Origin: Spirochaetia bacterium
Lineage (GTDB): Bacteria; Spirochaetota; Spirochaetia; SZUA-6; Bin103
Length of the DNA: 64,000 bases
Assembly: GCA_965198005.1 (NCBI GenBank)
Contig: CBDAOI010000003.1
Span: forward strand, 640,001-704,000
Reading direction: 5' to 3'
Shown: one piece after another, positions 17,751-59,040 of the stretch
Numbering within the stretch: position 1 is the stretch's first letter
Layout: each line of letters opens with the position of its first letter
The notes under the pieces: generated by a model
What the model was told of the DNA's origin: nothing
Databases searched by the model: none
What the model saw: the letters and a program-made list of their open reading frames with translations, nothing else
Position numbers and translations under genes: made by a program

Positions 17751-19541
17751 TCAGAAACCCATTCCTCTCTTCAGATCCTGGTCGATCCAGAGGCGAGGAA
17801 CGACGACTCCAGCGTCTATCGTTTCACCGTTAAAGCCGGTGACCCACGGCTGCGTCACAGTAAATACCAGCGCTCTACCAAGCCATAGATGCCAGTGGTT
17901 CTCTACGAGGTACATATTTGCCTCTCTGACTAACCTCTGCTGCTCCTCATGGGTAGGGGCGCTTTCTGCGGCTTCAACCATGGCGTCATAGGCCGGTTCC
18001 CGCACACCGGCGGGGTTCCATGTCGAGGTCGATACATTCTGTCCGAGCGGGCCGAGTATGCTATGATAAAACCCGATGGCTTCACTCGTCATGCCCTCAT
18101 AGGTATGTTCTCGTAGACGGCCAGCCCAAGTCGCCGAATCCATTGGTTGGAGCTCGACCTCAACGCCAATCTCACTAAAGTATGCTACGGCCAATTCGTG
18201 AAGGCCTAGATCACCTATATCTCTAAAGTCCAGGCCAGTCTTGAATCTAATGCCGTCGGCGCCGCGAGGATATCCGGCCTCATCAAGCAGCGCTTCTGCC
18301 CCTTTCGGGTCGTAGGTATAGTACTGCTGGATGTCTTCGGGCCAATCTTCAAACGGCAGCACATACCCGACCACTGCGTCCGACATATACCCTACAGGTA
18401 CCCCTAATGACCAACCCTTCATGTAGGTATTGCTCACTGTCTCACTGTCCCATGCCATCTGCATTGCGTGGCGTACCCTGATGTCGTTAAAGGGCGGATT
18501 TTGCGCGGACAGAGCAATACCCAGCCCCCAAAGGTAATGGGGAACGACTTGGATGTCGGGGTTGATCTGCTGGAGATTCGCTACCGTATTGACGTCCTGT
18601 ATTTGAGAACCGAAAAGAAAACCTAGGTAGTCGGTCTTACCCGAGCGCAGCGCCGCCAGACGTGTTGCCTCGTCGGGCATAATCATCACCTTCAACTCGT
18701 CAACATAGGGCAAGCGGTTCTCCGGGTATTTCTCATCGAATCCCCAGTAGTTGGGATTCTTCTTGAAGGTAATGGAGCTGCCTTCGACCCAATCAGCGAG
18801 TTCGAAGGGCCCGGTACCGACCAAGTTCCTCCAGTCCGTAACGTCGCCGTGTTGCTCGATTACTTCGGGGGGCAATATGCACATAGGGTACCCAAAGACG
18901 ATTTCACGAAAGGCCTGCAGGTTTGGCTTTTCTATGGTAAAGACAACCGTATGTTGGTCGGTTGCCGTTATCGATTCGATTCCCGCTTCGTCGACTCCTC
19001 CCCACTGGGCAATGTTGGGGCTGAATTCGGTATAGCCGCTGCCCAGACCCGTATAGCGATGCCAGTTATATTCGACATCCTTGGCAGTGAGCTCCCGACC
19101 GTTCATCGGCGCCTTGTCATGCCAGTTAACGCCCTGGCGGATGTGAAAGGTAAAGGTGAGGCCGTCGGCGGAAATGTCCCAGCTTTCCACCAGACGACCT
19201 GTTCTGGCAGAGTCAGGTATGTAGGCGCCTGCAAGGTCAAATTCGTCCCTATCTACTGCCCAGTCGAGATTGCCCAGCTGCTCGCACACGAACTCGTTAG
19301 CACCTCTTGTAGGATGTCCGAAGAAGGCGTCGGAACCCGCAGGGTCGGACAGCCGGGTCGCGGTGAATGTCCCGCCATACTGTGGCGCGGACACCAGCTT
19401 GCCGGTGGTCGGGTCGAGCACGATTTCCCTTTCGGCTGCCGCTGCCGGCTCCGTGTCTGTGGCGCCACCCGCCCAGAGGCCGGTCGCGGTCAGAACGAGG
19501 ACCAACGCAATCGCGAAGGTCCTTGAAAAAAATATCTTCAT
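17751..19541 (-). CDS. Family 5 ABC substrate-binding protein (OppA/DppA-like), cassette 1
   Basis: Start at MKIFFSRTF (ATG 19541, purine-rich RBS). Signal peptide ...TGLWAGG; LVESWDIS.DGLT.TF.IR, GTGPF. Confidence 0.93.
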   Translation of the reverse strand: MKIFFSRTFAIALVLVLTATGLWAGGATDTEPAAAAEREIVLDPTTGKLVSAPQYGGTFTATRLSDPAGSDAFFGHPTRGANEFVCEQLGNLDWAVDRDEFDLAGAYIPDSARTGRLVESWDISADGLTFTFHIRQGVNWHDKAPMNGRELTAKDVEYNWHRYTGLGSGYTEFSPNIAQWGGVDEAGIESITATDQHTVVFTIEKPNLQAFREIVFGYPMCILPPEVIEQHGDVTDWRNLVGTGPFELADWVEGSSITFKKNPNYWGFDEKYPENRLPYVDELKVMIMPDEATRLAALRSGKTDYLGFLFGSQIQDVNTVANLQQINPDIQVVPHYLWGLGIALSAQNPPFNDIRVRHAMQMAWDSETVSNTYMKGWSLGVPVGYMSDAVVGYVLPFEDWPEDIQQYYTYDPKGAEALLDEAGYPRGADGIRFKTGLDFRDIGDLGLHELAVAYFSEIGVEVELQPMDSATWAGRLREHTYEGMTSEAIGFYHSILGPLGQNVSTSTWNPAGVREPAYDAMVEAAESAPTHEEQQRLVREANMYLVENHWHLWLGRALVFTVTQPWVTGFNGETIDAGVVVPRLWIDQDLKRGMGF

Positions 19542-19562: not shown

Positions 19563-19727
19563 TTCGAGAGTATTGCGGAGCGGATTGCCTCCCTGGCTAC
19601 TCTCGGGCCCGCAATGCGGACGGCCAGTCTGAGTCAATTTGTGAAGCGCGCGGCGTGTGACTCGGCGGGTTCACCCCAGGGCTCACGCCGCGCGCCTACG
19701 GTTCTTTGAGTATCATTCGACCTCCTT
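19563..19727 (-). promoter_or_regulatory. Type-1 SBP leader: SD + micro-ORF MILKEP (19716-19696) + 12-bp hairpin + GAGAG/CTCTC stem
   Basis: AAGGAGGT precedes the ATG. Inverted repeats at 19646-19657/19684-19695 and 19565-19572/19598-19605. Homologous to 44862-45051 and 36474-36532. Confidence 0.65.
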
Positions 19728-20003
19728 CTTCTCTAGATCTACGTCGGGATCTGCGTTATAACGCCACGCGTGGTGGTGGTCTGAGCAGCAGCGAGTCTGA
19801 ATGGCCGGCAACGCTGGGGGTGTCGCCGGCCGGGATCCGGGACGGTTGCGGTCGCCGGGAAGGGCGCGGGCGGCCCGCATGCCGGTTCGGCGATGGGCGG
19901 AGCCGGCGCCACCGATAGCTACGGCGGTGGTGAAGGCGACGGCGTGCGCGGGGGGGGGCGGGGCATAAGCGCTAACTTGTTGTGGGGGCCTACAGGGGCC
20001 ATG

Positions 20004-20148
20004 CATGACTTTACTGTGCGACCGTACCACGGACGTGCGACTCGGATCAACCAGCCGCGTCGAAAAAATCGAAGAAATCTGACCGCTCATGGCCCTACGG
20101 TGCGACCGTATCACGGCCCCGCGACTCGCGTCAACCACCTGCGTCGAA
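20004..20148. repeat. Two imperfect ~60-bp direct repeats, period 84 bp
   Basis: GTGCGACCGTA(C/T)CACGG...GCGACTCG...TCAACCA..GCGTCGAA at 20004-20064 and 20088-20148. Confidence 0.75.
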
Positions 20149-23721: not shown

Positions 23722-23805
23722 TGCCGGCGCTCGGACTCGAACCGAGACGGTGTTGCCACCACCAGATTTTGAGTCTGGCATGTCTACCAATTTCATCACG
23801 CCGGC
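23722..23805 (-). tRNA. tRNA-Leu (anticodon CAA), CCA not encoded
   Basis: Minus strand GCCGGCGTGATGAAATTGGTAGACATGCCAGACTCAAAATCTGG...GGTTCGAGTCCGAGCGCCGGCA: acceptor stem, long variable arm, TTCGA T-loop. Confidence 0.95.
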
Positions 23806-31580: not shown

Positions 31581-31729
31581 TTCGCATCCGGCCCAAGAAA
31601 ATGTCCGAGAAACTTCGATTGATTATCTCTCCTCTTTCAGGCATTGGTCTTCTCCTTCATCTACGCGAGGCAATTCAACCACCGCTCGTCTGCCCGAGTG
31701 TACCACGTATGAGGTGGCACCGACATGGT

Positions 31730-31836
31730 GCCGCGGTGAGCACCAGGCCGCCGCTCATCCACAGGTACACGTTGCGCAGGATGCGATTTTCGCGGATGGC
31801 CCGCACCGCGCTGAAACTGAGATCTCGTTGTGACAT
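31730..31836 (-). pseudogene. Bax inhibitor-1/YccA family, 5' stub
   Basis: RBS then MSQRDLSFSAVRAIRENRILRNVYLWMSGGLVLTAA. Confidence 0.55.
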
Positions 31837-31924
31837 GCCTCTCTCCTTGCCCGACACCGTAAGGTGCCGCGCTCAGGGGGCCGGGTCAACCGAACGCACG
31901 GTGGTCACTGTGGACGTCGGTCAG

Positions 31925-32139
31925 TGTCGCCATCCCGCTGATCATCATCTTCTCGATCAACATTGGCGGGGTCATCATTGCCGAAGCGTCGCTGAGCTTT
32001 CTCGGATTTGGACTGCCTCCCGAAGTGCCGAGCTGGGGCGGCATGCTGAGCCGGGAAGGGCGCAAGTACATGGAGCAGGCGCCATGGCTGGCTCTCTGGC
32101 CCGGCCTGTGCCTGACCATCGTCGTCTACAGTCTGAACT
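31925..32139 (+). pseudogene. OppC-like permease, internal/3' fragment
   Basis: Encodes IIIFSINIGGVIIAEASLSFLGFGLPPEVPSWGG...VYSLN, matching paralogs in the window. Confidence 0.85.
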
Positions 32140-33340
32140 GGCCCGAATACCCGCTGTTCTGCCGGGCGGTGCGCGACTCTCGGACTATCTGAGCGTCGGC
32201 GTCATCGCGCAGGTGTTTCCGTTGCCGGCCGTGCGGGCAGCGCTTGATGAGAGCGGTCGGCGCAGCCAGCGACAGCGGTCACTGCCGGCGGAGGTGATGG
32301 TCTACTACGTCATCGCGATGGCGCTGTTTCGGTCGGTATCGGCGCGTGAAGTATTGCGCTGCCTGGTGGACGGGTTGCGCTGGATGGCGACCAGTATGCC
32401 GGTCCGGGTATCGGGCAAGTCGTCGATTTCGCGGGCGCGGACGCGGCTGGGCACGGCGCCGTTCGAGGCGCTGTGCCGCGCGCAGGTGGAGGTAGTGGCG
32501 GACTCCCAGACGCGCGGGGCATGGTACCGTGGACGGCGGCTGGTGGCGTTCGACGGATCGACGCTGGACGTGCCGGATGAGAGCGAGAATCGGGAGACCT
32601 TCGGGTTGCCGGGCAGTGGCCGCGGGCAAGCGGCGTTTCCCCAGGTACGGCTGACCGCGATGGTGGAAGTGGGCACGCGGGCGGCCTTTGCCTGGCACCG
32701 GGGGCCGTTGCGGGAATCGGAGGAGGAGCAAGCGGAAGCGTTACTCAGCCATTTGACGGCCGGGATGCTGGTGCTGGCGGATCGGGGCTACTTCGGGTTC
32801 CCGCTGTGGCTACGAGCAACGCAGACCGGTGCCGACCTGCTATGGCGGGTGATGGCTCGGAACCACTTGCCGGTCCTGGAACGGCTTGCTGACGGGTCCT
32901 TTCGCAGTATCGTCCGTGGCAGCGGCCAGGACCGTAGGCGCAGCCGGGGAGAGTGTCCGATCCGGGTCGTGGAGTATCGGATCGCAGGTGAAAGCGACGA
33001 AGTGTTCCGGCTCGCCACCACCCTGCTCGATCCCGAGCAAGCCCCGGCCACCGAATTGGCGGCCCTCTATCACGAACGCTGGGAGAGCGAGAACGCCTAT
33101 GACGAGGTCAAGACTCACCTGCTCGGACCCGGCGCAGTGCTGCGCAGCAAGACCCCGAACCTCGTGCGCCAGGAGGTGGACGGACTGATGCTGGCGTATT
33201 ACGCGGTGCGCCGTCTGATCCACGCTGCGGCCCGCCAAGCCGACGAGGACCCGGATCGACTATCGTTCGTGCATGCCGTCCAGGTCGTGCGCCGCCGGGT
33301 TCAGAACCCCGGCGCTTTTCCCCCCGGCGGATCAGGGTAA
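32140..33340 (+). mobile_element. IS4-family transposase, start codon and left end lost
   Basis: ARIPAVLPGGARLSDYLSVG..., VAFDGSTL, LADRGY, LYHERWESE.AYDEVK (DDE/YREK). Confidence 0.88.
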
Positions 33341-35137: not shown

Positions 35138-36346
35138 GGGTCGACAGGCAAGCAATAACGGCCCCGCTCTCCACAGAAATCGCCGAAGTTGTGGAGTAAG
35201 TGTGCGGCAGCCTCGTGCAGATATAGTAGCGTAGCCAGGCTCAGGGATAGTGCGTTCTTGAGGCGCGCTTGGCTTGATATGGAAATCTCAGTTATGGAGG
35301 TAACAGATGTCAGGAGCACTCGAACAACGCCCCTTCGGAAACACCGGTGAGAAGGTCACCGTTATCGGTTTGGGAGGCGCTTTTCTCTACAAACACTCCT
35401 TTGAGCAAGGGGTAGAAACGGTCAAACATGCGTTGGAGCTAGGTGTCAACTATTTCGATACCTCTCCAGCGTACGGAAGACGGAGGGATGGCAAGTGGAT
35501 CAGCAGGGGTGAATCGCAGTTAATCATGGGTGAGGGTCTTGACGGGAGTACGAAACCGCATCTACTTGCGACCAAGCTACATAAGTGCCGCTCAGTAGAA
35601 GATTTCCGCGCCCAAATACAAGAGAACCTACATGCCCTGCGTCGTGATAGGGTCGATATACTCCAGGCGCACGACATCGAGCGGGCATACTTATGGAAGC
35701 CCGACCGCCAGAGTACTGACATGCTGAACCTTGATGAGGAGCTAGACTTCGAGAACGCCCCGGTGATACAGGCGATGCGTGAAGCAAAGAAGCAAGGGCT
35801 CTGCAGTTTCATTGGTATCAGCTCACAGTGGTCCGAAATGATAGTCCACGTCCTGAAGCATGTAAGGCTAGACATGTGTCTCTCTGCCATGGAGTATTCG
35901 CTGTATAACCGACGTTCCCCGCATGTGGTGTTGCCGTTCATTCGTGAGCAGGGGGTTGCTTATGTCGTAGGAGGGATATTCGCCATACATCGTAGACATT
36001 TGCAGCCTTCCGCAGAAGATATTTGTGGATCGGCATTCTCCGATGAGCGCCTGCTCAAGTTGGCGGAGACGACGGGCATGTCGATCGCGACGTTGACGGT
36101 TCGTTTCTTGATAGCGAATCAGGAGGTTTCGACCATTCTGGTGGGTGCGTCCACACCCGAGGAGATCGAGGAAAGCGTCGTGGCCGCGCAGGCAGGTCCG
36201 CTACCGCCCGACCTTCATCAGACCCTTGAGGAAGTGGGATCGAATACCGGCTTCTATGATATAGTCTCGTAGGATAATGATGAGAGATTATGTCAGGAAG
36301 AGGGTCGACATGCAAGCAATAACGGCACAGCTCCCCACAGAAATCG
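35138..36346. repeat. 45-bp direct repeats flanking the aldo/keto reductase gene
   Basis: 35138-35182 and 36302-36346 match at 41/45 positions. Confidence 0.8.
35307..36272 (+). CDS. Aldo/keto reductase
   Basis: RPFGNTG..VTVIGLGG, GVNYFDTSPAYG, LATK, DILQAHD, ILVGAST. Confidence 0.9.
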   Translation: MSGALEQRPFGNTGEKVTVIGLGGAFLYKHSFEQGVETVKHALELGVNYFDTSPAYGRRRDGKWISRGESQLIMGEGLDGSTKPHLLATKLHKCRSVEDFRAQIQENLHALRRDRVDILQAHDIERAYLWKPDRQSTDMLNLDEELDFENAPVIQAMREAKKQGLCSFIGISSQWSEMIVHVLKHVRLDMCLSAMEYSLYNRRSPHVVLPFIREQGVAYVVGGIFAIHRRHLQPSAEDICGSAFSDERLLKLAETTGMSIATLTVRFLIANQEVSTILVGASTPEEIEESVVAAQAGPLPPDLHQTLEEVGSNTGFYDIVS

Positions 36347-36470: not shown

Positions 36471-36473
36471 AAC

Positions 36474-36532
36474 ACCCCGGGCTCACGCCGCGCGTGCGTG
36501 CGGTTCTTTCAGTATCATGTTCACCTCCTTCT
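36474..36532 (-). promoter_or_regulatory. Orphan partial type-1 leader with micro-ORF MILKEPHARAA (36518-36483)
   Basis: Near-identical to about 44995-45075; AAGGAGGT SD. Confidence 0.65.
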
Positions 36533-36584
36533 TGGGGCACAGAGTGCCCTGCCAGCACCTCAGTTGGGGCCCCAAAAAGAGGGA

Positions 36585-37008
36585 GCAACTTGCGCGTGCT
36601 GTGTTGGAGATCCCCGGCACATCAATCACGAAGCGGCGCATCGCTGGTTCCGGGGCTGGCACCGGCGTGTCGCGCTGGGCGACCTGTTCAGTGACGGAGA
36701 ACGGCTGTGTGCGTATTCTCACCAACCCCGCCTACCCGACGGTCTCTGCCACACCCTCGGAGGTGCTGACGCGTTTGCAGCGGTTTTGCGATTCGGGGGG
36801 ACATTCTTTCTGGTCGGATGATGTCGCGCTGCGCACCGCCCTGGATGGCGCCGGCAAGGAGCGCCTCCACGGTTATCGACAGGTCACCGACTTTCACCTT
36901 GCAGCGCTGTCTGCTGCACGCGGCGGACAGCTGGCCACATTCGACGGCCGGCTGGAACGCTCCCTTGCCGGCACCGGCCTCGCGAACGCGGTGGCGCTGG
37001 TCCAGTAG
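36585..37008 (+). pseudogene. VapC/PIN ribonuclease toxin, 5'-truncated and frameshifted
   Basis: H..HEAAHRWF in one frame, then WATCSVTENGCVRILTNPAY...QVTDFHLAAL..ARGGQLATFD. Confidence 0.75.
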
Positions 37009-43027: not shown

Positions 43028-44839
43028 CTAATGACCCATTGCCTCCTTCAGCTCACTATCAATCCAGAGGCGGGCGAAAAGTGGAATACTGTCCCCGGTT
43101 GGGTCATTTTCACCGTCATAACCTATGATCCACGGCTGGGACACATTAAAACTTGGAACTCTCGGACCCGCGAACCACCAGTGATTCTCTATGAGGTACA
43201 TATTTGCCTCGTTGACCAGCCTCTTCTGCTCCTCAATGGTGGTAGCGGCTTCGGCGGCTTCATACATGGCGTCATAAACCGTGTCGTTGACGTTGGGGGG
43301 GTTCCATCCTGAGGCCGAGTAAGCTCCCGTTAACGGCAGAAGCGCGGGCTGATAGTCGGCGTTTGAAACTTGAGTAACCAGACCTTGCTGCTTATGCTCT
43401 CGCACAAGAGCCGTATAAGCAGTTCCGTCAACTACCTGCACCTCTACAGCAATGCCAATGGCACGCAAGTATTCGATGACTATCTGGTAATAGTCTAAAT
43501 CGAATGGCCCGTAGTGGTCATAGACGGTGCGGAATCTTACGCCGTCCGCGCCGCGAGGTAATCCAGCCTCATCAAGCAACGCTTCTGCCCCTTCCGGGTC
43601 ATAGGTATAGTATCTCTTGAGCTCTTCGGGCCAGTCTTCAAATGGGGTGAAATACCCGATAAGACCTGTCCCTATCTGCCCTGCAGGCGTCGTATCTGCC
43701 CAACCGTGGAAGTAGGTATCGTTAATTGTCTCAAGGTCGACTGCCATCTGTATTGCGCGGCGCACCGTGACGTCGTTCCAGGGTGGCATCTGCACGTTAA
43801 AAGTCATAGCCGTATCCGCACGAAATGAAAATGGCCACAGGTTCAGTTCGGGGTTGGTCCGCTGGAGGCTTACCGCCGTATCGATGCTCCTTATTATTGT
43901 GCCGCCCGCCCGACCGATGTAATCAGCCTTACCTGTACGCATTAACGCCAGATTTGTCGCTTGTTCCGTCGATATCAGGGACCTTATCTCGTCAACATAG
44001 GGCAGGCGGTTCTCGGGGTACTTTTCGTCGTAGCCCCAGTAGTCAGGATTCTTGGTATAGGTGAGGGAACTGCCCTCGACATGGTCAGTCAGCTCAAAGG
44101 GCCCGGTGCCGACCACGTTCCTCCAATCCGTAACGTCGCCGTATTGCTCGACTACCTCGCGGGCCATTATCCATCCGAGACTTCCAAGGAGGATTTCCTT
44201 CAGCGCTTCGAGGCGTATCGACTTCAGCTTAAAGACAACCGTCCATTTGTCGGTGGCCGTTATCGATTCAACATTCATCTTTTCGAGGGGATGAGCGGCA
44301 GCGGCAACATCAAAGCTAGGTTCGGCTTCACTGAAGTCGCCCAGGCCCAATATACGCTGAAAGCTATATTCTATATCCTCGGCAGTTAGCTCCCGACCGT
44401 TCACGGGTGGCTTGTTGTGCCAGTGAACGTCCTGGCGGATGTTGAAGGTATAGGTGAGGCCGTCCGGGGAAATATCCCAGCTTTCAGCCAGCCTCCCTGT
44501 TACGGCAGACAGAGGGACGAAACCTGTCAAAAAGTCAAATACGTCCCTATCTAATGCCCAGTTCCAGTAGCCTAGCTTCTCATTAACACCCGAGATAGTG
44601 TTTGTCGCGGTGTACGAGAAATAGGGGTCAATATTCTTACCGATGTTAGACTGGACTTGGGTGAATGTCCCGCCGTACTCCGGCGCGGTCACCACCTTGC
44701 CGTTGGTGGGGTCGGTCACATACTTCTTGTCGGCGGCGGCTGCCGAGCCCTCCTCTGCGCCACCCGCCCAGAGGCCGGTTGCGGTCAACACGAGGACCAA
44801 CGCAACCGCGAAGGTCATTCTAATTCTTACAATATTCAT
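43028..44839 (-). CDS. Family 5 ABC substrate-binding protein, cassette 2
   Basis: Signal peptide ...TGLWAGG; LAESWDISPDGLTYTF, GTGPF. Confidence 0.93.
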   Translation of the reverse strand: MNIVRIRMTFAVALVLVLTATGLWAGGAEEGSAAAADKKYVTDPTNGKVVTAPEYGGTFTQVQSNIGKNIDPYFSYTATNTISGVNEKLGYWNWALDRDVFDFLTGFVPLSAVTGRLAESWDISPDGLTYTFNIRQDVHWHNKPPVNGRELTAEDIEYSFQRILGLGDFSEAEPSFDVAAAAHPLEKMNVESITATDKWTVVFKLKSIRLEALKEILLGSLGWIMAREVVEQYGDVTDWRNVVGTGPFELTDHVEGSSLTYTKNPDYWGYDEKYPENRLPYVDEIRSLISTEQATNLALMRTGKADYIGRAGGTIIRSIDTAVSLQRTNPELNLWPFSFRADTAMTFNVQMPPWNDVTVRRAIQMAVDLETINDTYFHGWADTTPAGQIGTGLIGYFTPFEDWPEELKRYYTYDPEGAEALLDEAGLPRGADGVRFRTVYDHYGPFDLDYYQIVIEYLRAIGIAVEVQVVDGTAYTALVREHKQQGLVTQVSNADYQPALLPLTGAYSASGWNPPNVNDTVYDAMYEAAEAATTIEEQKRLVNEANMYLIENHWWFAGPRVPSFNVSQPWIIGYDGENDPTGDSIPLFARLWIDSELKEAMGH

Positions 44840-44861: not shown

Positions 44862-45051
44862 TTCGAGAGTATTGCGTAGCGGATTGCCGCTCCCTGGCTA
44901 CTCTAACGCCCGCAACCGCGGGCGCGCCCGCAAACGCGGACGGCCAGTCAGAGTCAAATTCCTGAAAGCGCGCGGCGTGTGACTCAGCGGGTTCACCCCG
45001 GGCTCACGCCGCGCGCGCGTGCGGTTCTTTCAGTATCATCTTCACCTCCTT
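44862..45051 (-). promoter_or_regulatory. Type-1 SBP leader: SD + micro-ORF MILKEPHARAA (45039-45004) + hairpins
   Basis: AAGGAGGT SD; stem 44968-44979/45005-45016; AGAGTA...TACTCTCGAAA before the RBS. Confidence 0.65.
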
Positions 45052-45414
45052 CTCGGGGCACAGGGTGCCGTGCCAGATGGCTGACGTAAGATGGGATCCG
45101 CGTGCGCGCCCCATCATGCAAACGCCCACCGCTCGGCGGAGGTCGGGACCTGCGTCACAACGCCACGCGGGGCGGTGGTCGGCCGAGCAACGCATGTGGT
45201 TGACCGGCGACGTGGGCGGTCGGTTCTGTGACGGTGAGTTGGGGGGCGGGGATCCAGGACCGCTGCGGTCGCAGCCGGCCGCTACCCCGGTGCTGAAGGC
45301 GACGGCGTGCGCGGGGGCACGTACGGGGCGATCAGCCGGAGCGGTTAGTTGTTTCTCGGTTCGAAAAAGTGTGTGTGTGTGTGTGGGGGGGGGGGGGTAG
45401 GAAGCATCGGTTGC

Positions 45415-46100
45415 GTCACCACCAACCGGTCACTGCGCTGACTGTCGTCGTGGCGCATCATCCTCATCCGTTCGATCCCCGAACTCCCTATCGTTTCACG
45501 GTCGCCCAATGATATCAAGCGCGGACTCCGGCGCTTCCGGCCGCCCGCCAGCGTCGCCGCCACCGGACACCGCCAACCCGTCACTGCGCTGCCTGTCGTC
45601 ATGGCGCTTCATCACCGATCCGTCGAACCCCAGGCGAGGCACGTTAGCATAGGGGCCGCGCGCCGTCAACGACTCGTCGGGGTCACCGAAGGTCACCGCC
45701 AACCGGTCACCGCGCTGACTGTCATCATGGCGTTTCATCACCGATCCGTTGAATCGTGAGCTCGAAGTATGGGGCCCAGCGCAAGAAACGTCAACAGCGA
45801 TTCTGGCCTCGTGCACCTTACCTCGCCCGGCTGTGCAAACGGTTGATGTTGCGCGCGTCACCAACCGGTCACTGCGCTCACTGTCGCCATCGCGCCTCAT
45901 GACCATCCGTTCGATCCCAAAACTCCCTATCGTCACAGGCTCGCCTGACCATGTCAAGCGCGGACTCCGGCCGTTCCGGCCGCCCGTCAGCGTCGCCGCC
46001 ACCGGAGGTTGTGACGTTGCGGGCACCGCCAACCGTCCACTGCGCTGACTGTCATCATGGCGCTTCATCATCGATCCGTCGAACCGCAGCCGAGGCAAGC
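45415..46100. repeat. Array of five degenerate ~55-bp direct repeats
   Basis: Core CCAACCGGTCACTGCGCTGACTGTC.TCATGGCGCTTCATCA..GATCCGT starts at 45422, 45573, 45699, 45861 and 46029. Confidence 0.8.
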
Positions 46101-53549: not shown

Positions 53550-53858
53550 GCAGGTGTATGGGTAACGACATGCCCCCCCCCAGCCACCGCGTAGCGCGGA
53601 GGCACCCGACTACCGACTACCGCGCGCCGCTAGCCGCTCAGCCAACCACCCAGCGGCCGACCGCTCGGCGCCAGTGCTGAGCGCGGCACCATCGATCCGC
53701 GTGGCGCACAGCCGCCACGCATCCGTGCGTCCACCGGCCGACCCCGTCGGCCGCCACTTCCACCAGTCCACACCAACATGCGTAGCGACCCTTGCCGGCC
53801 GCCACCACGCGTGGCGTGCGCAGGCTTGCCCTTCGGCGCGGCGCGCGCGCGTCAACAA

Positions 53859-53995
53859 AAGGAGGCATGGGATGAAACACCCGACCGGGTACGACTAACT
53901 CGGACCCCAGGATGTCGCCCTTCGCTCGACTATGAGAGCGCGCTCGCGGGAGCGAGCGTTGCGAGGGGCCGGCAGTGGAATCAGTGCTCTCGAAA
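53859..53995 (+). promoter_or_regulatory. Type-2 leader: SD + micro-ORF MKHPTGYD (53872-53898) + structured RNA
   Basis: AAGGAGG 6 nt before the ATG. GAGAGCG...TGCTCTC stem enclosing the hairpin CGCTCGC-GGGA-GCGAGCG. Confidence 0.6.
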
Positions 53996-58420: not shown

Positions 58421-59040
58421 CGCGCTCCACCCCAGCACCGGCAGCCGAACGCGCCGAAGCGCTTGCTACATCTCTCGCGCTGGTCTAAGCTGCAGGTGTA
58501 TGGGTAACGACATGACCCAGCCCAGCCGCCGCGTAGCGCGGAGGCACCCGACTACCCGACTACCCGACTACCGCGCACCGCTAGCCGCTCAGCCGACCAC
58601 ACAGCGGCCTACCGCTCGGCGCCGGTGCTGAGCGCAGCATCGATCCATGTGGCGCACAGTCGCCACGCCTCCGTGCGTCCAGCGGCCGACCCCGTCGGCC
58701 GCCACTTCCACCAGTCCACACCAACATGCGTAGCGACGCTTGCCGGCCGCCACCACGCGTGGCGTGCGCAGGCATGCCCTTTCGGCGCGGCGCGCGCGCG
58801 TCAAAGGAGGCATGGGATGAAACACCCGACCGGGTACGACTAGCTCGGACCCCAGGATGTCGCCCTTCGCTCGACTATGAGAGCGCGCTCGCGGGAGCGA
58901 GCGTTGCGAAGGGCCGGCAGTGGAATCAGTGCTCTCGAAACTATTGTAAGGAGATCTCGATGAGATTTTTCAAAACAGGCCTCGCGATACTGTGCGGCCT
59001 GGTTCTGACCGCAACCGGCCTGTGGGCCGCCGGCGCAGAT
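58421..59040 (+). repeat. Type-2 SBP upstream module, copy 2 (promoter 58463-58491; micro-ORF 58817-58843)
   Basis: Direct repeat of 53479-54095. Confidence 0.92.

Follow-up and report, generated by a model that had tools for sequence, protein, structure and literature searches.

The window analysed here is a stretch of 64,000 nucleotides of a Spirochaetia bacterium (contig CBDAOI010000003.1, positions 640,001 to 704,000 of the forward strand), and the element in question is a mini open reading frame (mini-ORF) in the leaders of genes for ABC-transporter solute-binding proteins (SBPs). Three mini-ORFs, all of them on the minus strand—copy 1 at 19716-19696, encoding MILKEP, copy 2 at 45039-45004 and copy 3 at 36518-36483, both encoding MILKEPHARAA—lie where the preliminary description, made from the letters of the window, had placed them, each behind the perfect Shine-Dalgarno (SD) sequence AAGGAGGT. 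The differing spacers (GGAGG-to-ATG spacing of 4, 5 and 5 nt) and the synonymous differences in the shared codons (CTC/CTG and GCG/GCA) were likewise found again, as was the perfect 12-bp stem at or over the stop codon in the two complete copies, with the arms 19695-19684/19657-19646 in copy 1 and 45016-45005/44979-44968 in copy 2. The mini-ORF ATG precedes the SBP start, belonging to the Pfam family SBP_bac_5, by 175 nt in copy 1 and by 200 nt in copy 2. The position in front of transporter genes thus holds for these two but not for copy 3, which breaks off at about 36472, just past the 5' arm, without a 3' arm, pseudoknot or SBP behind it. The folding z-scores of the leaders are -3.2 and -2.0.

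Comparison of the leaders gives an order of parts, namely a promoter-like site, a short head ORF, a poly-C or other non-triplet repeat, about 300 nt of C-rich RNA open in one frame, the mini-ORF with its strong SD, a GC hairpin, a pseudoknot and the SBP start; the earlier reading included neither the long upstream frame with its repeat nor the pseudoknot farther down. Judging from these comparisons, it can be held with moderate confidence that the mini-ORF is translated and closes an extended control region common to a large family of SBP genes. Leaders with a mini-ORF of the LKEP type are designated class I, and sister leaders with unlike mini-ORFs class II. The parts present in the window are as follows:

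20105..20134, minus strand: copy 1, predicted sigma70-like promoter (own consensus scan), with a second one at 20050-20021
19713..20090, minus strand: copy 1, long leader ORF of 125 codons through the C-run, without Pfam match; its TGA overlaps the mini-ORF ATG (ATGA)
19950..19958, minus strand: copy 1, C9 run within the long leader ORF
19720..19727, minus strand: copy 1, strong SD of the mini-ORF
19696..19716, minus strand: copy 1, mini-ORF MILKEP and stop
19646..19695, minus strand: copy 1, 12-bp GC hairpin S1 (arms 19695-19684/19657-19646) enclosing a smaller, variable hairpin
19631..19663, minus strand: copy 1, possible pseudoknot 1, loop GAGTCA (19663-19658) with TGACTC (19636-19631); conserved, weak covariation
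19566..19627, minus strand: copy 1, pseudoknot 2 with P1 (19627-19623/19597-19593) and P2 (19604-19598/19572-19566), ending 24 nt before the SBP ATG
17751..19541, minus strand: copy 1, family-5 ABC solute-binding protein; permease genes next (17618-16614 and 16621-15725)
45490..45518, minus strand: copy 2, imperfect sigma70-like promoter, with a better match at 45669-45641
45345..45467, minus strand: copy 2, head ORF of 40 codons through C13 (45397-45385) and a CA repeat; it stops just past the repeat, out of frame with the body
45040..45357, minus strand: copy 2, body frame, open from the conserved module behind the repeat as far as the mini-ORF and in frame with it
45042..45051, minus strand: copy 2, strong SD
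45004..45039, minus strand: copy 2, mini-ORF MILKEPHARAA and stop, the last codons forming the 5' arm of the hairpin
44968..45016, minus strand: copy 2, 12-bp GC hairpin S1
44865..44947, minus strand: copy 2, pseudoknot 2, the end of which lies 25 nt ahead of the SBP ATG
43028..44839, minus strand: copy 2, family-5 SBP gene; permeases at 42687-41722 and 41706-40774
36472..36555, minus strand: copy 3, orphan fragment with upstream hairpin, SD, mini-ORF (36518-36483) and 5' arm only
53872..53993, plus strand: class II leader, mini-ORF MKHPTGYD and stop (53872-53898), homologous pseudoknot 2, then SBP; C9 at 53573-53581 in an out-of-frame head ORF
58817..58938, plus strand: class II leader, mini-ORF MKHPTGYD and stop (58817-58843), pseudoknot 2, then SBP; 8-nt repeat in an out-of-frame head ORF

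With Rfam covariance models, the window yielded a tRNA only and the class I and class II leaders nothing near threshold, in agreement with the earlier statement that the leader is undescribed. A profile seeded on the mini-ORF gave 82 matches in the 4.9-Mb genome, 81 of them with the ORF; because of these numbers and the folding z-scores, the trio of the window is not a matter of chance. The signal-peptide motif of an SBP follows within 450 nt in 70 of the 81 copies and an intact SBP frame in 63. The class I leader is present in six of the ten other genomes of the genus, and no convincing one was seen in 20 more distant genomes; over the wider range searched, G022, G033 and G037 gave borderline single matches. 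Concerning the SBPs themselves, the closest named relatives come from metagenome-assembled genomes of Spirochaetia; homologues in Dehalococcoidia and in an unclassified bacterium have no class I leader. A scan of metagenomes returned 32 loci, comprising one true leader with its SBP (L295) and a remainder due to chance. The best RNA matches are labelled sponge metagenome (four runs of one study), and RNA contigs of sponge metatranscriptomes match the SBP gene with 0-1 differences and extend over the leader. The leader depth in these contigs sums the paralogues and the coverage fades at differing upstream points in each run, so that they define no start site, level or attenuation point.

It may be added that genome G000 holds 218 SBP-like reading frames or fragments, many of them broken. 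In front of the homologues of the unclassified bacterium (L140, L141, L143, L160, L165 and L167), the SD, the ATG and the beginning of the signal peptide of the gene itself recur as degenerate tandem copies, and those of Dehalococcoidia (L139, L146, L150 and others) have long repeat linkers rich in Val, Glu, Lys, Thr, Pro and Gly after the lipoprotein signal, as well as an upstream palindrome resembling repetitive extragenic palindromic (REP) elements.

Translation of the mini-ORF

The preliminary description had noted synonymous substitutions in the window copies; three near-identical paralogues alone are insufficient to show selection, which does emerge from a family-wide test of codon-level conservation, of the kind that had been proposed there. 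The test comprised 205 distinct leaders, 77 from the genome of the window itself and 128 from six relatives. The leaders of G003, G005, G006 and most of those of G007 were collected via the 3' arm of the hairpin, i.e. independently of the ORF, and 20 of the 24 mismatched G005 sites were fetched; the own and G001 leaders were ORF-anchored and hence biased. Three rows were left out for want of a usable anchor, and events were counted by parsimony on a tree of the DNA behind the ORF. Over codons 2-6, there were 106 synonymous versus 48 replacement events (dN/dS of about 0.13), and over codons 3-6 (LKEP), which are under selection at the amino-acid level, 102 versus 21; Pro6 is kept in 204 leaders with all four Pro codons in use. 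Recombination inflates such counts, yet it should not favour third positions.

The initiation signals point in the same direction. The start codon is ATG in 161 leaders, GTG in 19, TTG in 9 and CTG in 5, the commonest change of the SD, from GGAGG to GGGGG (145 and 19), keeps the pairing, and the median anti-SD pairing over 167 leaders amounts to -13.2 kcal/mol for the mini-ORF versus -6.1 kcal/mol for the SBP start. Based on the codon-level selection, the pairing-preserving SD variants and the ranking of the starts, it appears very probable that the mini-ORF is translated, as had been supposed for a leader associated with a hairpin. The relevance at the peptide level is limited to LKEP. At codon 2, ATC was never seen—although it makes up 52% of the Ile codons of the SBPs—whereas codons for Val and Thr with a final A are found, and this position is therefore constrained as nucleotides. 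Codon 7 is variable (His in 143+3 copies, stop in 21, Tyr in 15, Arg in 8, Trp in 5, others including Glu), and the stop codon has changed from TGA to TAA in five copies. Ribosomes are known to stall at a C-terminal Glu-Pro followed by a stop (PMC3985003, available part), and by analogy they may stall at the Glu-Pro of the mini-ORF.

The class II leaders carry their unlike mini-ORFs behind strong SDs in 41 of 46 cases, and these are minimal, being start-stop or 3-8 codons long: start-stop in six, MxN, VKP/VKL, MxPKTGYD, MKSPYD and others, with non-standard starts in six. The feature general to both classes is a ribosome-loading site before structured RNA. Some class II mini-ORFs (xKD or xED and stop; C4+700736, C3+925503, C3-737542, C3+748302 and C4-755260 of G000, and L249) follow a perfect SD but begin with ATA, CTA or GTA, where a relative has ATG (MKD and stop); these may be either non-canonical starts or products of decay. 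Many class II mini-ORFs of unrelated sequence end with Asp or Asn before the stop (YD, KD, PD, QN).

The RNA on either side of the mini-ORF

Downstream, the hairpin stem is near-invariant, with two double changes in 197 leaders. At least five T within the 8 nt after the hairpin were counted in 21 of the 197, the U-tract being missing in 176; because so few copies have one, the hairpin is not an intrinsic terminator. A U-G step follows 10-13 nt past the stem. Pairing is feasible between the loop motif GAGTC and a GACTC situated 9-12 nt downstream of the stem, and this pseudoknot 1 is regarded as possible, with one core double change and most variants breaking the pairing. Pseudoknot 2 is common to class I and class II leaders. 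In 76 of the 90 leaders that were folded first, 24-26 nt separate its end from the SBP ATG, which would correspond to the edge of an initiating ribosome. In class II, with 51 of 55 rows aligned, 92.5% of the cells are paired versus 43-46% in slid controls, and double changes were found in 5 of 7 pairs of P2, a level reached by 0 of 500 shuffles, and in 3 of 13 of P1; in class I, they are few. The model of pseudoknot 2 has matches at 50 places in the genome and in six of the ten congeners, with only two borderline matches elsewhere. As for the SBP ribosome-binding site (RBS), its access in folding is 0.47 in the free RNA versus 0.46 with a ribosome at the stop, the 3' strand of P2 pairing with the RBS in 2%, it being understood that the folding program does not handle pseudoknots and the test is thus indirect.

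Several other explanations of these parts were tried and set aside. An anti-SD switch is not supported, the RBS access being unchanged by the ribosome footprint; a ribozyme like that of hepatitis delta virus is at odds with the order of the helices, and a REP origin of the hairpin with the lack of free copies outside these leaders. A -1 frameshift or bypass into the SBP was dismissed for want of a slippery heptamer and in view of the freely varying leader lengths. A de novo mutual-information search was uninformative, the sequences being too alike. Nor is the conserved motif itself a promoter: sigma70-like sites with better -35/-10 matches lie at a median of 448 nt upstream (in 50 of the 81 copies), and its substitutions track codon positions.

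Upstream, the leaders are marked by poly-C, and the mini-ORF is usually the end of a long, C-rich frame with a repeat in it. Of 121 runs of at least nine C, 84 lie on the sense strand of these leaders, which account for 1.9% of the strand length, and there is no G-run there. Tandem repeats have non-triplet units in 16 of 19 cases in leaders versus 34 of 60 elsewhere, copies from three relatives have 7- or 8-nt repeats at or beside the position of the C-run, and the run lengths vary between sister leaders (8 vs 5 and 18 vs 15, in assembled contigs). Past the repeat, a conserved module shares the frame of the mini-ORF in 45 of 65 leaders, all 45 being stop-free up to the ATG, with 26 distinct module-to-mini-ORF distances in this frame versus 9 and 10 in the others. 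The other two frames stop within 12 codons past the repeat in 63 of 64 and 59 of 64 cases. Where a C-run of at least seven is present, the frame is open from there to the mini-ORF ATG in 58 of 88 leaders (29 of 46 own and 29 of 42 from relatives), or in 70 when the ATGA overlap is included. Indels upstream are multiples of three in 36 of 91 cases and in 36 of the 56 of at least 3 nt, whereas behind the stop the figure is 4 of 45. The commonest head ORF, which is open in 29 of 30 leaders, shares the frame of the body in 15 of them; all 15 of these bodies are in turn in frame with the mini-ORF, versus 10 of 15 where the head is out of frame (P = 0.04). A count of head indels came from unreliable all-against-all alignments and was not used.

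The long frame has no codon periodicity, the substitutions being spread as 95/109/99 over the three positions with 76 of 303 synonymous, and no amino-acid selection was seen on the long ORF or the head; since the substitutions are aperiodic, it is the frame that is kept and not a peptide. In leaders having neither mini-ORF nor pseudoknot (C2-667169, C2-840309 and C4-1219275 of G000), the frame of the C-run runs into the SBP start in three of four MALR-type genes.

The family has also been shuffled. SBPs 98-99.9% identical across species stand behind unrelated upstream modules (e.g. C4+686592 vs L010 and C4+831052 vs L044 and L096), which suggests an exchange of cassettes via the conserved mini-ORF/pseudoknot region. 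An antisense piece of a group II intron (RF02005) is found close upstream in 27 of 184 class I leaders, such as L287:2566-2786 and L288:2612-2831 (G000 C4 and C3). Its junction is nearly fixed, 36-38 nt before the mini-ORF ATG where mapped, next to a small hairpin; in three own intron copies, the remaining part of the leader is found about 2 kb farther upstream.

Elsewhere in the window, there are a tRNA gene at 23722-23805 (minus strand) and an IS4-family transposase at 31601-33340 (plus strand). The orphan copy 3 adjoins on one side a frame without Pfam match (36541-37008, plus strand), the C-terminal half of which we take to resemble a PIN/VapC toxin by its motif, and on the other side an AT-richer aldo-keto reductase gene (35307-36272).

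Models of leader function

The reading preferred here is that of a leader translation switched by the repeat and gating Rho, a model which, taken as a whole, seems about evenly poised between right and wrong. Slippage in the repeat would decide between two outcomes: in the ON state, ribosomes that started at the head would translate the leader as far as the mini-ORF and enter it, and in the OFF state they would meet a stop no more than 12 codons past the repeat. In the latter case the bare C-rich RNA would be open to Rho, with termination at or before the hairpin. The mini-ORF, with its strong SD, its Glu-Pro and the hairpin ahead, would park a ribosome on the 5' arm of the hairpin and this ribosome would probably release or shield the RNA polymerase, the mini-ORF's own SD providing a basal level in the OFF state. 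The hairpin may also pause the polymerase as in hisL, the spacing fitting roughly, the G-10 base not. LKEP would thereby be a pausing context rather than a nutrient sensor or a product, and each operon a separately switching contingency locus. The rho gene is present with a score over the cut-off.

Several observations weigh against such a switch. The skew of C over G, +0.10 to +0.17 and confined to the upstream RNA, is modest, only 88 of the 184 leaders examined have a C-run of at least seven, and without this filter the leaders of the relatives reveal no depletion of stops in the mini-ORF frame (176 vs 153 vs 253 stops). Upstream indels of 1-2 nt make up 35 of 91, the SDs of the heads are weak, 11 of the 205 copies have no start codon, and the G-10 pause base is mostly absent. 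In class II, the frame is weaker, with 13 of 24 in frame (17 with overlaps) and another frame open in 10. Crossover between in-frame paralogues keeps the frame without selection, the copies not being independent, and assembly errors in homopolymers could blur the frames. In the contigs, which were the form in which the reads were served, no variation of repeat length within a population was seen. Finally, the intron-bearing leaders have kept the start in all cases and LKEP in 26, and the mini-ORF may function alone, since it is intact in them.

This last point, together with intact SBPs in 9 of 10 intron-interrupted own copies, agrees with an autonomous ribosome checkpoint, in which the mini-ORF alone would sense the ribosome supply or a slow decoding of Glu-Pro, with a hairpin pause and Rho attenuation following and with frame and repeats secondary. 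Its very strong own SD, the selection on LKEP next to an aperiodic long frame, the minimal sister ORFs and a U-G step near the hisL spacing (PMC9291695, available part) fit this alternative as well; it is nevertheless considered unlikely, as it leaves the frame over 26 distances, the excess of 3n indels, the stops past the repeat and the concentration of C-runs unexplained, and the sequence suggests no inducer. The upstream frame is equally left aside by translational control, where a ribosome on the mini-ORF would open the hairpin and remodel the pseudoknot by the SBP RBS, or the pseudoknot would be an independent site for a protein or ligand (operator, S1 standby site or riboswitch). The covariation of P2 and the fixed distance of pseudoknot 2 from the SBP ATG speak for it and the unaltered RBS access, albeit from an indirect folding test, against it, so that it is rather improbable.

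The exchangeable cassettes could also mean that the mini-ORF is a vestige, a former SBP start separated from its gene by an inserted structured element and kept alike by gene conversion as a homology arm for cassette swapping. One leader without the mini-ORF (1 of 17) does match the upstream DNA of class I over 86 nt (85%) and continues directly into the SBP start; conversion, however, yields neither 3-nt periodic substitutions nor the five changes from TGA to TAA, and while it can account for origin and spread, it cannot for maintenance, which makes this explanation quite improbable. Still less credit is given to an mRNA stabiliser, in which a ribosome at the strong SD and the pseudoknot would block 5' decay and keep the SBP mRNA abundant: strong SDs and minimal ORFs do recur across the classes and RNase Y was found, but RNase J and RNase E/G were not found in the 90% complete genome, and frame and repeats are again unexplained. 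The classical amino-acid attenuator with an intrinsic terminator, the layout named by the preliminary description, has the least to commend it; the stop does lie within or beside a strong stem, but the U-tract is missing from most leaders, there is no regulatory codon run, codon 7 is free and the RBS folding is unaffected by the ribosome footprint.

Returning to the repeat-switched leader, its furthest extension—a genome-wide bank of contingency switches which leave the genes themselves unharmed and choose, via translation-coupled Rho polarity and a selected four-residue ribosome parking signal on a double-pseudoknot RNA, which of more than 100 exchangeable SBP cassettes a cell expresses—is put forward tentatively and as rather doubtful. 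In plain terms, an uncultured spirochaete has before about eighty nutrient-uptake genes a mini-gene, usually closing a longer frame with an unstable repeat, which may help to switch each transporter randomly on or off. If true, a symbiont would randomise what it takes up by means of a single reusable leader design, present at dozens of loci and combining repeat-driven phase variation, the coupling of translation and transcription and an uncatalogued pseudoknot, and it would represent, in a sponge-associated spirochaete, the nutrient-receptor counterpart of antigenic variation. The leaders would also offer natural variants of a minimal pausing signal of the LKEP kind, the longest having 11 codons and the shortest being start-stop.

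Comparison with known systems

Leader peptides of the tnaC type are 17-150 residues long. The attenuation by Rho that depends on an upstream ORF (uORF), as in tnaC, speFL, cruR, mgtL and corL, resembles the spirochaete leader in that the access of Rho is proposed to depend on whether ribosomes occupy a leader ORF, and TnaC also ends at proline, according to the available part of a review covering Rho polarity (PMC12360218). The features of this type present in the spirochaete are rho itself and a C-rich, G-poor leader of modest skew. The difference lies in the input, which is there a metabolite acting via the peptide or a codon run, whereas here there are four selected residues, start-stop sisters and an apparent input from the repeat.

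With hisL, trpL and leuL, as far as the available part of PMC9291695 goes, the leader has in common a hairpin over the end of the leader ORF and a U-G step about 10-13 nt downstream, but it has no terminator/antiterminator following, and G-10 is mostly absent. Concerning stalling at Glu-Pro (PMC3985003, in part), 21 of 205 copies end with Glu-Pro-stop, whereas most read on through His or another residue. A survey of uORFs (10.64898/2026.05.12.723736) covers, in its available part, coupling and RBS occlusion, not this layout, and a partial literature search, excluding supplements, found no published description of the spirochaete leader.

The closest parallel is pil1 of Streptococcus gallolyticus, where, according to the available part of PMC3894217, the length of a non-triplet repeat in the leader ORF sets an early stop versus one at a hairpin before genes for surface proteins. 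Like pil1 and pil3, the spirochaete has a long leader and an ORF with a non-triplet repeat inside it, the off-frames stopping early and the on-frame reaching the hairpin. The repeat in a leader ORF is described there for two pilus loci with a T-tailed intrinsic terminator, whereas the spirochaete leader has no U-tract, a repeat that is mostly poly-C and dozens of paralogues; it reaches the hairpin in one frame of three and continues with a mini-ORF that has an SD of its own and with a pseudoknot. Taken together, the spirochaete leader, while differing from pil1 in the terminator, would be most like it in its way of working.
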